From Candidatus Woesearchaeota archaeon (GTDB lineage Archaea > Nanobdellota > Nanobdellia > SCGC-AAA011-G17 > GW2011-AR20), in NCBI GenBank assembly GCA_016181245.1, contig JACOZR010000018.1:1-43229 (forward strand): a DNA stretch of 43,229 nt. The letters are read 5' to 3'. How positions within the stretch are numbered: position 1 is the stretch's first letter; each line of letters begins with the position of its first letter. Positions 7,470 to 11,497 of the stretch are shown here, in pieces. The translations under genes were made by a program, and so were the position numbers. The notes beneath the pieces were generated by a model, which was given only the letters and a program-made list of their open reading frames with translations, was not told where the DNA came from and did not search any database.

Positions 7470-7739
7470 TTGATTGTGAGCAAAATATCTTTGAAAAAAG
7501 AAGCTAGGATTAAGGAAGACATACTAAGACTTCTTTATGACAAATATCCCGAGTTTCATTATACGAGTGTTGTTTCTTATGAGACTTTAAGGAATAATGA
7601 ATTTATTTTGAGATTGTTAAATGAATTGACAAAAGAAGGGCTTGTTTCTTTTATTGATGAAAAAGGAGGGAGGGGTATAAGGAAAAAATGGTGCTTAAAG
7701 AAGGAAGTTTTTGAAAAGTATAAAGAATTACTACCCTAA
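7470..7739 (+). CDS. Small winged-helix protein
   Basis: ILRLLYD...[19 protein letters not shown] wHTH-like pattern; overlaps the lonB C-half stop convergently. Confidence 0.65.
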
Positions 7740-9089
7740 CTTTTTCAAAAGATCCTTTTTTCCTGACCAGTCTAAAGCATATTTTAATACTTCTTGAATT
7801 GTGTTTACAGGGATAATTTCTATCTTTTTCTTGCTTTCTGGAGATAAAACAACATCTTTTAGGTTTGTTTGGGGGATTATAACTTTCTTTATGCCCGCTT
7901 CTATTGCTGCTTCTATTTTTGGAGTTACTCCTCCAATAGCCAGAACCTCTCCTCTAACTGAAAGAGAACCAGTCATAGCCACATCTTGTCTTACTGGAAC
8001 GTCCTTTAGTGCAGAAATAATCGCTGTTGCAACTGCTATGGAGGCTGAATCGCCTTCAACACCTGAGTCTGCTGTTTGTAGAAATTGAACAAAAATATCG
8101 TATTTTTCTTTGATATCTTCACCGAAGTTCTTCAAGATAATTGCTGAAACATTCTTTACTGCCTCTTTGGCTATTTTTCCTAATTGACCTGTAGCTATTA
8201 TTTCAGATTTTTTGCCTCCTGGTGTGATTTCTGATTCTATTGGGAGGACTATACCTGAGAAGCTTAATTCTGTGCCTATTACTGCTAGACCGTTAACTCT
8301 TCCTATTAATGTGCCTGTTGTGACTATGATTTGGTATTCCTTCTTGGTTTCTATGTATTTGTCTGCTATTTGCTGCTCTAGGGTTCTTGCCAATCTTTTT
8401 GCTTTTTCAATATGAATTGGTTCAACTAACTTTGATTTTTCTGCTATTGCGAAGTCTCCTGCTGCTCTTACTAGACCACCTAGTTCTCTTAATCTTAAAG
8501 TTAATTTTCCTGCTCTTGTTGATCTTTTTCTTGCTTCCTCTATAATTTTGATAACTGCGTTTTTTGAGAAATGTGGAATTTTCTTATCTTTCTTTACTTC
8601 TTGTGCTATGAATTGAGCGATCTTATAATGATTTTCTGGGGTATCATCCATTTCGTGATCCATATAAACTTCATAACCATAACCTCTGATTCTTGATCTT
8701 AATGCAGGATGCATATTTTTTACTGTCTCTAAGTTTCCTGAGGCAACTAGAATAAAATCGGTTGGAACTGGGTCGCTTCTTGTCATTGATCCTGAAGAGC
8801 GTTCTGATTGGCCTGTGATAGGGTATTTCTTTTCTTGCATGGCTGTTAAGAGCTCTTGCTGAGATCTTGGTGAAAGACTTGCAATTTCATCTACATAGAG
8901 AACTCCCCCAGATGATCTGTGGATAAAACCTGGAATTAAACGTTCATGAGCTGGAGTGCCTAAACCTCCTGAATTTTTGACTAGAATGTTATTAGCTAGT
9001 AAATTCCCTGATTCTGTTGTTAAATTGTACAAGTATCCTTTGTATGGGATTTTTTCTATTTTCTTGATTTTTTCTGTGGTGAGTTTCAT
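7731..9089 (-). CDS. lonB: LonB protease C-terminal half preceded by a 39-aa split-intein C fragment
   Basis: [12 protein letters not shown], Walker B LYVDE, arginine-finger region [11 protein letters not shown], catalytic Ser GDSAS and Lys GGVTPK. Confidence 0.95.
8973..9089 (-). mobile_element. Split intein C fragment (blocks F and G)
   Basis: [39 protein letters not shown] followed by Ser+1 (TCA at 8972-8970). Confidence 0.93.
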
Positions 9090-9195
9090 ATTAATTGATT
9101 GGATAAATGAATTTAAAAGATTAATGCTTTATTCTCTAAATGGGATTTCTTTTCCTTCTACCTTCAATATCTTAAGACTTGCTTTTTTATTCCAA

Positions 9196-10248
9196 TCATA
9201 CATCTTTTCTTTGCTGTTTGATGATTTCTAAGGAGTGTGGAGTTAAATTTAGTACTCTTAGTGTGGTTTCTTTATTTTTCGTATTAAATAAAACATCCCT
9301 ATATCTGTGATATTTTAAATTAATAAAGTCTTTTAATGTATTATTTAATCTTTCTTGTTTATATTTGCAGTATGTTAATCTTATCATTTGCACAAAATTG
9401 TAAAAATTATCTAGATCCTTGCTAATTTGTAACCTGAGCAAGCATTTGTCTGGATATTTCTTAGGATAACTTATTGAAATTGATCCTGTTCTTATATTTT
9501 TACTATTCAAATATTTTTGAATTTGAGATAGAAAGTTTATCTTATTTTCTCTTGAATTTATTGTTGTTTGTAAACCTATATCTAATGATGTCAATTGATT
9601 ATTATTTTTATGTATTGTAGGAGTTCCTAGCTCCCCCCCGAGAAAAGATGAAAAGAAGCTATCTGCTATTTTTTCGTTTATAAATATCCATTCTGGTATT
9701 TTAAATTCTATTTGTGATTTTCTCCCTATTGGTGCCCCTAATGCTTGAAATAATCTTATTACGTTTCTATTTGTATTTTGATAACACCATGAATGCCCAT
9801 ATCCTCCTGCTTCTATTATTCTTGAATTTGATTCTATTTCACTTCCGAAAATTGTTTTAAGATCTTCTCCGAACTCCTTTACTGCTTCTAATTCTGAACT
9901 TGATAGAAAAATTCCATTTAAATTACCAAATATTCCTCCGTCTCCAAATGTCGCCCCTAAAATCTTCGAAATTAATTGTACTCTTGAATCTTCTATTGTG
10001 AGGGGAATTAACCCTTTTTCTTTTAGCCAGTTAGCTGTTTGTATTGGGACTGGAATATGTTTCTTTGCATGCCACCATCTTGTTTTTCCGTATGACTGAT
10101 TTAGTAATTTTGCTATTTTTTTGTAACCAAAAGAAGGATTTTCTTCCTTGATTTTTATATATGTGTGATAGAGTCCGCATTGCTCTTGCTGTCTTGCATC
10201 GTATGTGTTGATCATATCTTGTTCTGTTAATACTATTTTGTTTTTCAT
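9196..10248 (-). CDS. Free-standing two-motif LAGLIDADG homing endonuclease with N-terminal HTH-like segment
   Basis: ILGATFGDGG and FFSSFLGGELG motifs about 100 aa apart; LGAPIGRK..IPEWI typical of intein-type endonucleases; GYKKIAKLL HTH-like. Confidence 0.9.
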   Translation of the reverse strand: MKNKIVLTEQDMINTYDARQQEQCGLYHTYIKIKEENPSFGYKKIAKLLNQSYGKTRWWHAKKHIPVPIQTANWLKEKGLIPLTIEDSRVQLISKILGATFGDGGIFGNLNGIFLSSSELEAVKEFGEDLKTIFGSEIESNSRIIEAGGYGHSWCYQNTNRNVIRLFQALGAPIGRKSQIEFKIPEWIFINEKIADSFFSSFLGGELGTPTIHKNNNQLTSLDIGLQTTINSRENKINFLSQIQKYLNSKNIRTGSISISYPKKYPDKCLLRLQISKDLDNFYNFVQMIRLTYCKYKQERLNNTLKDFINLKYHRYRDVLFNTKNKETTLRVLNLTPHSLEIIKQQRKDV

Positions 10249-10339
10249 AGTTTAATATTAGTATATGCTATTATATATAAATGTTTGTATTTTATAGTTA
10301 AATGATAACATTTAAAAATAATGAAACTTTTATAAGATT

Positions 10340-10480
10340 ATGAAAAAAATAGAGAAGGTTATGGTTTATTTTCCTGAAGATCTTTCTAAGAAGTTAAAAG
10401 AGATTGCTGAGAAGAATACTAGATCTATTTCGGGGCAAGTAGTTCATTATGTAAAACAGGGAATTAAGATGGAAGATTAA
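10340..10480 (+). CDS. Arc/CopG-like ribbon-helix-helix DNA-binding protein (46 aa)
   Basis: Below the ORF-track cutoff; translated by hand: MKKIEKVMVYFPEDLSKKLKEIAEKNTRSISGQVVHYVKQGIKMED*. TATA (TTTAAAA) at about 10311-10317. Confidence 0.85.
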   Translation: MKKIEKVMVYFPEDLSKKLKEIAEKNTRSISGQVVHYVKQGIKMED

Positions 10481-11497
10481 TTAAGATATTGTGATAACCC
10501 TATCAAATCTTGTCAATTTCTGTGCTTCTTTGTATATTATTTTTCCAAATCTTCTTACTGCCACTTTATGTTCCGGTGTTACTATTAATATTTTTCCTTT
10601 TTCTGTTATGAATTTTATTAGTTTTCCTTTGTAAAAATAACGGTTTGCCGATAATACTTCTACTTCTTCTGTATCTTTGCCTTTTTTTCCTAAAATAAAT
10701 AATTCTTTTTTGTTTGTAAAGAAGGCTTCATATTTTCCTTTCTTGATTAATTTGTTTCTATTTTTTTCAAATAAAGGATCTAATAACCCTTTTAGTTTTA
10801 TTTCTTGTAGAGTTTTAATTTCACTTTTTCCATTTTGTATTATTTTTACTACTTTTGTGTTAGGAAAAAAAGTTTGGAGCGGGTCATGAAGTACATCGCC
10901 GAATAATGCACCTGAATGAGCCCCCGTAGCATCGATGAAAGGTGCTTTCTTTGTTTTTGCATTATCAATTAAAAGCTTTGGTACTTTAAATTCTCCGTTC
11001 ATCTTGACTCTTTTATTTACATTGATGAATATAACAAAAGCTGCTAAAAATATCATCGATGAGATTAGTGAAGCTGCTGCTAGGATATCCCCGTATTGCT
11101 TTCTTACCCACCACGGGGTTATGATTGCTAAGATAATTAAAATAAAAAAGATAATATTTTGATTTTTGAAGGAAGCCATTAATTGTATTTTTGCTTTATC
11201 TACCATCGCTCTTCCCTGACCTCTTGGGACGGTTCTTATCTTGGGAACATTTTCGTCTGCATGATTGGGGTAAGAAAGAACGTCTACTAACTTTTCTTTT
11301 GGCAACAATTCTGCTAGAGCTTGGCCTAGAATACTCTTTCCGGTTCCTGGTTGGCCGATTAATAAAACATTTCTTCTTTGCTCTGCTGCCTTTTTTATGA
11401 TATTCTTGGCATTTTCCTGGCCAACTACTTGATCTATAATTCTTTCTGGAACTTTTATTTCTGATGTAGATTTAAAGTTGAGAAGATCTTTTGCCAT
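10481..11497 (-). CDS. lonB: LonB protease N-terminal half fused to a 130-aa split-intein N fragment
   Basis: DQVVGQE, Walker A GQPGTGKS, two TM helices, DATGAHSGALFGDVLHDPLQ, then intein sequence to the stop. Confidence 0.95.
   Translation of the reverse strand: MAKDLLNFKSTSEIKVPERIIDQVVGQENAKNIIKKAAEQRRNVLLIGQPGTGKSILGQALAELLPKEKLVDVLSYPNHADENVPKIRTVPRGQGRAMVDKAKIQLMASFKNQNIIFFILIILAIITPWWVRKQYGDILAAASLISSMIFLAAFVIFINVNKRVKMNGEFKVPKLLIDNAKTKKAPFIDATGAHSGALFGDVLHDPLQTFFPNTKVVKIIQNGKSEIKTLQEIKLKGLLDPLFEKNRNKLIKKGKYEAFFTNKKELFILGKKGKDTEEVEVLSANRYFYKGKLIKFITEKGKILIVTPEHKVAVRRFGKIIYKEAQKLTRFDRVITIS
10484..10873 (-). mobile_element. Split intein N fragment (blocks A and B)
   Basis: Block A TFFPNTKV (Thr codon ACT at 10873-10871); block B ILIVTPEHKV; ends KEAQKLTRFDRVITIS*, the usual split position. 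Confidence 0.92.

Follow-up and report, generated by a model that had tools for sequence, protein, structure and literature searches.

In accounts of protein splicing, the nucleophile of the first step is a cysteine or a serine, and most class 1 inteins use an Asp at F:4, a His at F:13, a His at G:6 and a His at the NX position. According to a statement in Tori et al. (2010; PMC2807308), Thr1 has never been seen in natural inteins; that class 1 inteins start with Cys or Ser, as an earlier note on the present DNA had held, agrees with the same source. Class 2 inteins are defined, in the relevant passage of PMC5222942, by the lack of a nucleophile at position 1, where they have Ala. The residues at F:4, F:13 and G:6 are described as assisting and less conserved in a section of PMC4031507, the reference list of which includes a paper on splicing without a penultimate His. 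Our literature searches, which covered the full text of papers, found no later report of a natural Thr1 intein, and in the relevant passages of the papers that were found on Thr1, it appears only in the statement of Tori et al. or as a theoretical option. A literature search for split inteins in DPANN listed no paper that contains the term.

The gene arrangement described as a fractured gene in 2009 (PMC2677866) resembles the locus studied here. In the window, by which we mean the whole stretch of 43,229 nucleotides that was analysed, a small-genome, AT-rich (31% GC) DPANN archaeon carries a "fractured" LonB gene. In both cases, as far as the compared sections of that paper extend, the host gene falls into two parts where an intein sits, and the N half, an endonuclease and the C half follow in the same order and orientation; moreover, relatives show the stages of the model proposed there. 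However, the endonucleases in those sections are GIY-YIG or Vsr-like, whereas the one here is of the LAGLIDADG type, and the hosts are mainly phage DNA-metabolism genes, whereas here the host is a protease gene of a cellular archaeon. The window locus also differs in harboring an RHH (ribbon-helix-helix) gene on the opposite strand.

On the minus strand, the order is LonB-N with IntN, the endonuclease, and IntC with LonB-C. The LonB N-extein (10874..11497, minus strand) contains the Walker A motif GQPGTGKS and a hydrophobic, membrane-like stretch, ends in ...GDVLHDPLQ and matches positions 2-196 of the NCBIfam LonB model TIGR00764 (E 9.7e-60). It runs directly into IntN (10484..10873, minus strand; stop codon at 10481-10483), whose 130-aa translation, TFFPNTKV...TPEH...VITIS, has weak matches to Pfam Intein_splicing and TIGR01445. 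The RHH gene (10340..10480, plus strand; 46 aa; Pfam RHH_5 E 3.6e-8, Arc 2.5e-4) is an unrelated gene that lies between IntN and the endonuclease, tail-to-tail with IntN. The free-standing endonuclease of 350 aa (9196..10248, minus strand) matches positions 217-473 of NCBIfam RtcB_rel_intein (E 2.6e-24). IntC (8973..9089, minus strand; 39 aa) starts with MKL and contains block F YLYNLTT and block G NNILVKN. From Ser+1 onward, the LonB C-extein (7731..8972, minus strand; stop codon at 7731-7733) carries Walker B LYVDEI, the AAA lid and the Lon_C protease domain with GDSAS; this fragment matches TIGR00764 positions 194-605 with 619.5 bits, above the cut-off, and Pfam Lon_C (5.4e-35). In a comparison of split C fragments it scores 617.9 bits, and the others score 571-629.

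The insertion site of this mobile intein lies in the AAA+ module, between ...HDPLQ and SGGLGTP.... Because the intein-free LonB proteins of relatives, including that of the same-genus genome G001, read straight across this site (18 of the 20 loci listed), the intein boundary is unambiguous. The two halves lie in separate ORFs, each joined to half of LonB, and an endonuclease gene stands between them, which is the arrangement of a naturally split intein. Besides the two fragments, no LonB copy was found in the genome of the window (G000, 82.6% complete), and the host seems to rely on its split lonB. Organisms bearing homologues are labelled Woesearchaeota or Nanoarchaeota in their source records.

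The endonuclease ORF is intact and contains the motifs LGATFGDGG and FLGGELG. A PDB sequence search gave nothing useful for this protein and Pfam gave no name, so its identity is based on the NCBIfam match and on a fold search. Foldseek relates the AlphaFold model (pLDDT 88.2) to I-DmoI, I-Tsp061I and PI-PfuI (E 8e-7 to 2e-5, prob 1.00), with a TM (target) of 0.6-0.7 for I-DmoI and I-Tsp061I. As modelled, the ORF between the intein halves is a LAGLIDADG fold with two motif helices bearing acidic residues, and cleavage is a predicted activity.

The first intein residue is Thr1, encoded by ACT (10871..10873, minus strand) and preceded by CAA, the codon of Gln, the last N-extein residue. IntN further contains Arg78-Tyr79 at the NX-motif position (10637..10642, minus strand), where the MjaTFIIB intein has R-H and 9hth has K-H in the alignment, and block B T99-P100-E101-H102 (10568..10579, minus strand), which supplies B:7 Thr and B:10 His. 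In IntC, also on the minus strand, F:4 is Asn22 (9024-9026), G:6 is Lys38 (AAA, 8976-8978) and the terminal residue is Asn39 (AAT, 8973-8975), followed by Ser+1 (TCA, 8970-8972). F:13 is presumably Gly28, as judged by visual comparison with the common form of block F. The earlier note had read Thr1, an intact block B TxxH, the block F Asn, the VKN terminus and Ser+1 at these same places. Its count of net charges also stands: IntN has 31 K+R and 14 D+E (net +17), IntC has 7 and 3 (net +4), and Cys is absent from both intein halves and, beyond them, from both whole LonB fragments. The note was likewise right to set class 3 aside, as the WCT triplet is absent (B:12 is Val104, F:4 is Asn22 and G:5 is Val37) and F:4 is Asn in 35/35 sequences. 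The features of class 1 are present, namely, a hydroxyl at Thr1, the block B T-x-x-H, and a terminal Asn followed by Ser+1; the assisting Asp at F:4 and the assisting His at F:13 and G:6, common but not obligatory in this class, are all missing.

Among Cys-less inteins, PolB16 OarG, a split class 1 intein with Ser1 and Ser+1, offers a close comparison (PMC10189870, in its sections on this intein). Both inteins have oxygen nucleophiles at the two junctions and no catalytic Cys, both are naturally split, and the block B His and an [RK]-x at NX are common to the window and to Cys-less Ser1 inteins of this kind. Those inteins have Ser1, a His at NX and an Asp at F:4, whereas the window has Thr1, Tyr and Asn at the respective positions; in the part of Pasch et al. 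(2023; PMC10189870) that describes NX, the residue is Tyr or Asn in 2 of 58 sequences. PolB16 is also atypically split, whereas the window intein is split at the canonical endonuclease site.

By profile, the closest solved structure to the LonB intein family is the class 2 Mja KlbA intein (2jmz/2jnq), with 2jmz giving the best match (E 2.4e-14, profile positions 19-122). The family profile was needed for this comparison, as the window IntN alone has only weak matches in the PDB (best E 0.0074); the profile also matches other solved inteins and Hedgehog domains. The Mja KlbA intein has Ala1 and Cys+1 and splices by direct attack (PMC4031507, in the passage on this intein), whereas in the LonB family residue 1 is Ser, Thr or Cys without exception and +1 is Ser. 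The Euryarchaeota LonB inteins treated in part of Novikova et al. (2016; PMC4760082; 10 LonB inteins) share the same host protein family. In a representative search of 1.84 billion sequences, residue 1 was readable in the 38 of 258 domain matches that start at profile position 3 or before; the readable non-LonB matches have Ser in 15 cases, Cys in 3 and Thr in 0 of 18, and 17 of the 18 lie at a ...HEAMEQQ junction. The host of these inteins, which from the flanking motif we take to be MCM (CDC21), differs from LonB, but they are the nearest non-LonB relatives and share the block A S/C-[FY]-H-P and the preceding Gln.

Homologous LonB inteins were aligned, a check that the earlier note had proposed. 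Residue 1 is Ser in 54 of the 87 distinct IntN sequences that share this LonB site, Thr in 22, Cys in 11 and nothing else; in species-level genomes, the counts are 21, 8 and 8 (37 sequences, 36 genomes), with Thr1 encoded by ACT six times and by ACG twice. Most homologues come from metagenome assemblies, and the counts omit G386, G410 (L056; partial) and G027 (N fragment not found). Although Ala, Gly, Asn, Arg, Ile, Pro and Leu are one base away from the Ser codons in use (AGT/AGC/TCN), these residues occur at position 1 in 0/87. On a tree of 63 sequences built with column 1 left out, Thr needs 9 changes, at least 5 of them forced by well-supported branches; because many branches are weak (26/60 open), 9 or 17 changes are upper-end figures and 5 is the conservative one. 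Even the closest Thr-Thr pairs share no more than 57-66% identity. P0005 and P0006, to which the window IntN is most closely related (65% identity), both have Thr1; therefore, the Thr1 state is old. The prospect raised in the note, that close homologues would all have Ser or Cys, does not hold because many homologues have Thr. As judged from the aligned sequences, Thr1 is no defect but a natural state that has recurred in this intein allele in place of Ser1 and Cys1.

The other splicing residues are conserved across the family. In 37 sequences, H102 of block B is invariant and T99 nearly so, and among distinct sequences with a residue at these positions, B:10 is His in 86/86 and B:7 is Thr in 84/86. 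N22, G28, N29 and N39 of IntC are invariant in 35 sequences, and the terminal Asn and Ser+1 are present in 35/35. The block F Asn, the penultimate Lys/Ser/Thr and the lack of an F:13 His belong to the whole family; the earlier note had grouped the Asn and the VKN ending with Thr1 as one oddity, but both are family-wide, in Ser1 and Cys1 members too. The active site is thus poor in His throughout, with the block B His alone remaining next to F:4 Asn, F:13 Gly, G:6 Lys/Ser/Thr and, in Ser1 and Thr1 members, NX Tyr.

In solved Ser1 inteins, the residues aligned with position 79 form the [RK]-H NX motif, as described in the NX section of Pasch et al. (2023; PMC10189870); the window has Arg78-Tyr79 in place of [RK]-His. 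Tyr occupies this position in 72/75 Ser1 and Thr1 members (20/22 for Thr1 alone), and Cys1 members have His in 7/11 and Tyr in 0/11. With respect to NX position 79, Thr1 is, in the alignment, like Ser1. A kinship-controlled test of residue 1 against position 79 gives about 3 of 4 independent pairs in the predicted direction and 0 against (sign test p ~0.25), and because there are only 4 such pairs, the test cannot reach significance. Pro4 is found in 12/22 Thr1 and 5/54 Ser1 members, with about 2 of 5 independent pairs in support, so that its enrichment with Thr1 is unproven. Loss of His38 was also considered as a Thr1-specific change (His in 28/54 Ser1 vs 2/22 Thr1 members), yet this reading was dropped because 5 independent pairs do not point one way (0.7 same, 1.0 opposite, 3.3 unchanged).

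In relatives, the same intein occurs in contiguous maxi- and mini-inteins, in fusions of IntN with the endonuclease, as three genes, with the endonuclease lost, and with other genes inserted between the halves. P0058 is a contiguous LonB of 1114 aa with a Thr1 maxi-intein (...LQ|TIFPD...); therefore, LonB is not whole there without splicing. P0057 and the mini-intein of G399 are further contiguous forms. Thr1 is present in 6 of 16 genomes with IntN fused to the endonuclease, and in G028 (L009), no gene separates IntN from the endonuclease, and the frames of the two overlap.

The window pair probably splices in trans as a class 1 intein, with Thr1 serving as the oxygen nucleophile. IntN and IntC would associate into the HINT fold, and the Thr1 hydroxyl, aided by Thr99 and His102 of block B, would attack the carbonyl of Gln(-1) in an N-O acyl shift. 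The N-extein would then pass to Ser+1 by transesterification, the intein would be released through cyclisation of Asn39, and an O-N shift would yield full-length LonB with the junction peptide ...HDPLQSGGLGTP.... The structure prediction suggested in the earlier note favors association of the halves: the predicted IntN-IntC complex has an ipSAE of 0.88 (best control 0.00), a mark attained by 58/80 solved complexes and 2/110 mismatched pairs, although this pass may reflect likeness to known complexes because structures of split inteins have been solved. At least 93% of the contacts are common to the runs (pLDDT 82-88, at least 81 for the partner), and in the predicted complex position 79 pairs with the block F strand. 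Because an Asp at F:4 and a His at F:13, G:6 and NX are all missing from the center, splicing activity is something that we infer for the family as a whole. Of the three options in the note, the Thr-nucleophile class 1 intein is supported by the comparative evidence (Ser, Thr or Cys in 87/87, recurrent Thr, conserved splicing residues), direct attack by Ser+1 is not needed, and a splicing-dead clamp is disfavored.

The missing assisting residues could also mean that the HINT pair is splicing-dead, in the Thr1 variants alone or in the whole His-poor family, and serves as a non-covalent clamp for LonB, a role for which the extensive predicted interface of about 226 contacts would be suited. However, a clamp needs neither a hydroxyl or thiol at position 1, which is kept in 87/87, nor a terminal Asn (35/35) or a block B His (86/86). 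Moreover, contiguous P0057, P0058 and G399 need no clamp and keep the same residues. Because the terminal Asn and the block B His are invariant and contiguous forms exist, we consider a dead clamp unlikely. It is more doubtful still that Ser+1 directly attacks the N-terminal scissile bond, as in class 2, with Thr1 as a bystander. The profile match to the KlbA intein would fit such a route, but Ala or another non-nucleophile, the mark of class 2, occurs at position 1 in 0/87, so that direct attack is not needed; position 1 covaries with the neighboring NX residue, and direct attack is described for Cys+1 in the KlbA passage of PMC4031507, whereas +1 here is Ser.

We give slightly less credence to Thr1 as a recent mutation that disables or slows splicing in a lonB becoming a pseudogene or working poorly. 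The intein-free lonB of G001 indicates that a population can do without the intein allele, and a beta-branched Thr might be a poorer nucleophile; yet neither the two extein halves, whose scores resemble those of relatives, nor the endonuclease ORF is damaged, the old Thr1 state is shared with P0005 and P0006, and no second lonB was found in G000. Lastly, ACT is almost certainly not a Ser or Cys codon altered by faulty sequencing or assembly, the misreading of TCT/AGT/TGT that the earlier note had allowed for: no support for an error was found, contigs of four runs span 10871-10873 with no difference listed at the codon, and Thr codons occupy the matching place in 7 more species-level genomes and 14 further database proteins. 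The runs, all of one study, are X1 (which may be the source sample), X2 (covering 10512-10912), X3 (10695-10932) and X4 (10716-11497), the last three each with 0 other letters; what was compared are assembled contigs, and contigs lose rare variants.

With Thr1 preferred as the class 1 nucleophile, a broader reading, to which we give even chances, is that these are the first natural inteins known with an N-terminal Thr nucleophile. They would form a natural series of repeated Ser/Thr/Cys swaps at position 1, in which the adjacent NX residue has been adjusted to the nucleophile (Tyr where it is an oxygen, His where it is Cys) and the catalytic center cut down to the block B Thr/His and the terminal Asn, and would represent a mechanistically distinct, His-poor class 1 sub-type giving a fully Cys-free natural split intein. 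About a quarter of the family has Thr1, and its Ser1 and Cys1 sisters are built-in controls. The family therefore allows one to ask how a HINT active site fits a beta-branched oxygen nucleophile and to test what the NX residue, first defined in 2023, contributes. Cys-less split inteins are rare and wanted for oxidising conditions, according to the passage on their use in PMC10189870, and the window pair, being Cys-free in intein halves and exteins, is of practical interest. In cellular archaea, and within a single host gene, the locus and its relatives also display every stage of the fractured-gene model. A second intein site is present in the LonB P-loop (GTGK|C...HN|S) of some relatives, namely G038, P0049, P0050, P0053 and P0055.

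The broken lonB gene of the window is made up of three minus-strand open reading frames in series. The first (10481-11497, minus strand, 338 aa) encodes the N-extein followed by IntN, the N-terminal half of the split intein. Its N-extein of 208 aa matches the N-terminal third of archaeal LonB (TIGR00764 positions 2-196, E 9.7e-60) and ends in ...GDVLHDPLQ, and the following 130 aa, IntN, start with TFFPNTKV, contain TPEH and end in VITIS before the stop codon. The second (9196-10248, minus strand, 350 aa) matches the endonuclease portion of NF038162, a model of intein-containing RtcB (positions 217-473, E 2.6e-24). The third (7731-9089, minus strand, 452 aa) begins with the 39 aa of IntC, the C-terminal half, and supplies the remainder of LonB (TIGR00764 positions 194-605, 619.5 bits, which exceeds the cut-off; Lon_C, 5.4e-35). 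In relatives, the uninterrupted lonB reads ...HDPLQSGGLGTP... across the insertion site; because these genes, including that of the same-genus genome G001, define the site, the intein is exactly Thr1 to Asn39 of the two halves, with Ser as the first C-extein residue (+1). The earlier note was right about the codons, about the lack of Cys and about the net charges of the halves (+17 for IntN, +4 for IntC). In addition, cysteine is missing from both whole LonB fragments (window 7731-11497), and the organism's LonB after splicing would therefore have none either.

Between IntN and the endonuclease lies a CopG/Arc-like ribbon-helix-helix gene (10340-10480, plus strand, 46 aa; RHH_5, 3.6e-8), placed within the fractured locus; relative to IntN its orientation is tail-to-tail, and relative to the endonuclease gene it is divergent. 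It may regulate the endonuclease, or it may be an orphan antitoxin. In genome G028 (locus L009), IntN and the endonuclease have no gene between them.

The suspicion that the Thr codon, ACT, is a sequencing error can be set aside. In one groundwater study, four runs, one of which may be the source sample, gave contigs that span 10871-10873 with no difference listed at the codon; these are contigs rather than raw reads, and the commonness of Thr at this position in homologues is the stronger evidence that the codon is genuine. A search of 41 related genomes with the LonB model found an uninterrupted gene in 21 and a gene broken at model position 194-196 in eleven (G000, the genome of the window, and G004, G006, G012, G014, G021, G027, G028, G038, G039 and G040). 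When the phylum was sampled evenly, 36 of 401 genomes matched the window IntN at E <= 1e-5, a tally that takes in one genome flagged as unpublished, left out afterwards, and a small number of weak hits on other inteins. Residue 1, read from the junctions of 37 sequences from 36 species-level genomes, was Ser in 21, Cys in 8 and Thr in 8 (G000, G028, G117, G061, G227, G196, G259 and G200; codons ACT in six and ACG in two). Protein databases added 45 homologues of the size of the N-fragment (Ser 32, Thr 11, Cys 2) and 10 longer proteins (Thr 5, Ser 3, Cys 2). When pooled and de-duplicated, the 87 distinct IntN sequences had Ser in 54, Thr in 22 and Cys in 11, and no other residue was found at position 1 among them. 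Thus, the alignment of LonB homologues that had been proposed as a check on Thr1 did not return Ser and Cys only.

Thr1 is both recurrent and old. When column 1 was left out and a tree was built from 63 distinct IntN sequences, the Thr state required 9 changes, at least 5 of which are forced by well-supported branches; a quick tree of all 87 rows gave 17 changes, many of its branches being weak. Because the nearest Thr-Thr neighbours are only 57-66% identical (65% for the window and P0005 or P0006, 66% for L009 and P0053, and 57% for P0054 and P0055), the Thr1 state has outlasted a long divergence. Moreover, the IntC of G021 (L026 2169-2297) and that of the window (8973-9080) are identical at 36 of 36 residues, the exteins are 80-85% identical, and the G021 IntN has Ser1 and is 46% identical to that of the window. 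Therefore, one IntC sequence serves partners of both types, Ser1 and Thr1, and the two halves differ in history. Such a mosaic points to recombination, or to homing tracts with an end point within the element.

We consider the most economical reading to be an ordinary class 1 pathway in which Thr1 would act as the oxygen nucleophile. In its favour, position 1 is strictly Ser, Thr or Cys, the block B His and the terminal Asn are kept, contiguous forms occur, and there is apparently no second lonB (a search of G000, 82.6% complete, with the LonB model found no match besides the two fragments). Chemistry is no obstacle: Tori et al. (2010; PMC2807308) note that the Tli pol-2 intein still splices with the S1T mutation. 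Some residual doubt attaches to splicing in this histidine-poor family. Of the other two readings in the earlier note, the same conserved residues, contiguous forms and apparently single lonB argue against a splicing-dead pair retained as a clamp. They also argue against Thr1 as a bystander, with Ser+1 attacking directly in a class 2-like manner. A class 3 intein is ruled out by Val at B:12, Asn at F:4 and Val at G:5, and the triad is missing as had been claimed.

The remainder of the active site was compared across the family. In the IntN alignment (n = 37), Y48, N77 and H102 (B:10) are invariant, and T99, P100, E101 and K103 are nearly so; in the IntC alignment (n = 35), N22 (F:4), T25, G28, N29, L36, N39 and S+1 are invariant. 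Of the 35 IntC, 30 have Lys as the penultimate residue, 4 have Ser and 1 has Thr. The atypical block F Asn and VKN terminus are therefore present as first noticed, but they are common to the whole family and not special to Thr1: the F:4 Asn, the missing penultimate His and, as we interpret block F, the lack of an F:13 His are family traits. Position G:5 is Cys in 20 of the 35 (ILCKN), Val in 12, including the window, and Ala in 3, so many relatives are not Cys-free.

The family profile, searched against solved inteins, matched Mja KlbA (2.4e-14), 9hth (2.6e-6), MjaTFIIB (4e-6), Pho CDC21-1 (1e-5) and PolB16 (1.6e-4), and the family's N77-[RK]78-Y79 aligned with S-R-H of the MjaTFIIB intein and M-K-H of 9hth. 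In cysteine-less inteins, an [RK]-His "NX" motif adjoins Ser1, as Pasch et al. (2023; PMC10189870) describe, and position 79 is this NX position. In the predicted IntN-IntC complex, IntN 78-81 pair with IntC 18-21, the block F strand. Tyr79 occurs in 72 of 75 Ser1 or Thr1 members (20 of 22 for Thr1 alone), and the 11 Cys1 members have His in 7 and Tyr in none. About 3 of 4 phylogenetically independent pairs agree with this direction and none oppose it, in a test that is underpowered. We read this as a probable coupling of residue 1 to its neighbour 79, with Thr1 grouping with Ser1.

The cysteine-less Ser1 inteins thus offer the closest chemistry, and the window differs from them in Thr1, in Tyr at NX and in Asn at F:4. 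A search of 1.84 billion representatives placed the nearest non-LonB relatives after ...HEAMEQQ, a flanking motif that we take to indicate an MCM host. The 18 readable non-LonB matches, 17 of them at the HEAMEQQ junction, had Ser (15) or Cys (3) at residue 1 and no Thr; the LonB matches of this search had Ser in 10, Cys in 6 and Thr in 4. Tori et al. (2010) stated that Thr1 had not been seen in nature, a 2014 review gives the step-1 nucleophile as Cys1 or Ser1 (PMC4031507), and in the main text of open-access papers neither a natural Thr1 intein nor a LonB split intein of this type came to light. The arrangement itself is that of the fractured genes of Dassa et al. (2009; PMC2677866), from which the window differs by its LAGLIDADG endonuclease and its cellular archaeal host. 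What is new is the natural, recurrent Thr1, which sequence comparison confirms as a real feature of a putative class 1 family; a split class 1 intein in a fractured gene is of a kind already known. Elsewhere, G000 is rich in inteins, with 16 Pfam Intein_splicing matches spread over no fewer than 8 long open frames other than lonB (contigs C5, C46, C12 with two ORFs, C51, C11, C39 and C14; loci L058-L063). Four other putative N-junctions, read by eye, appear to have Ser (SVTGD...) or Cys (CVAPD..., CTSYD...), not Thr.

This one intein allele illustrates all the stages of the fractured-gene model. There are contiguous maxi-inteins (P0057, Cys1; P0058, Thr1) and a contiguous mini-intein of 171 aa (G399, Ser1); IntN is fused to the endonuclease with IntC separate in 16 of the 37 sequences (Thr1 in 6) and stands alone in 20 (Thr1 in 2, the window among them). 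At L024 (G012), L026 (G021) and L027 (G006), unrelated genes lie between the lonB halves, now 3-4 kb apart, a stage that precedes full dislocation in the model; their translations resemble, by eye, a TrmB-like regulator, a radical-SAM-like ORF, an SGNH-like ORF and a Cys-rich secreted protein. The G039 bin holds two different LonB-N/IntN copies, L022 (contig C23) and L023 (C28), which both have Ser1 and lie at the ends of their contigs, with IntC/LonB-C downstream of one copy only; this could be a strain mixture or a real duplication. A second, unrelated intein with its own LAGLIDADG domain occupies the LonB Walker A loop (GTGK|C...HN|S) in L029 (G038), L042 (G307), P0049, P0050, P0053 and P0055; therefore, LonB has two intein sites in the phylum.

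The IntN-IntC complex was predicted with a score of 0.88, against 0.00 for the best control; 58 of 80 solved complexes reach this mark, as do 2 of 110 mismatched pairs. The runs share at least 93% of contacts, and partner pLDDT is at least 81. The prediction supports association of the halves as a likeness rather than a proof, because split inteins with solved structures exist. Both window halves are basic, and the claimed lack of DnaE-like charge complementarity holds for them; such complementarity is not a rule in the family, because net charges range from -7 to +23 for IntN and from -5 to +7 for IntC. The intervening ORF was modelled confidently (pLDDT 88.2), its fold matches being the LAGLIDADG endonucleases I-DmoI, I-Tsp061I and PI-PfuI (E 8e-7 to 2e-5), and an empty target site is present in the same-genus G001.
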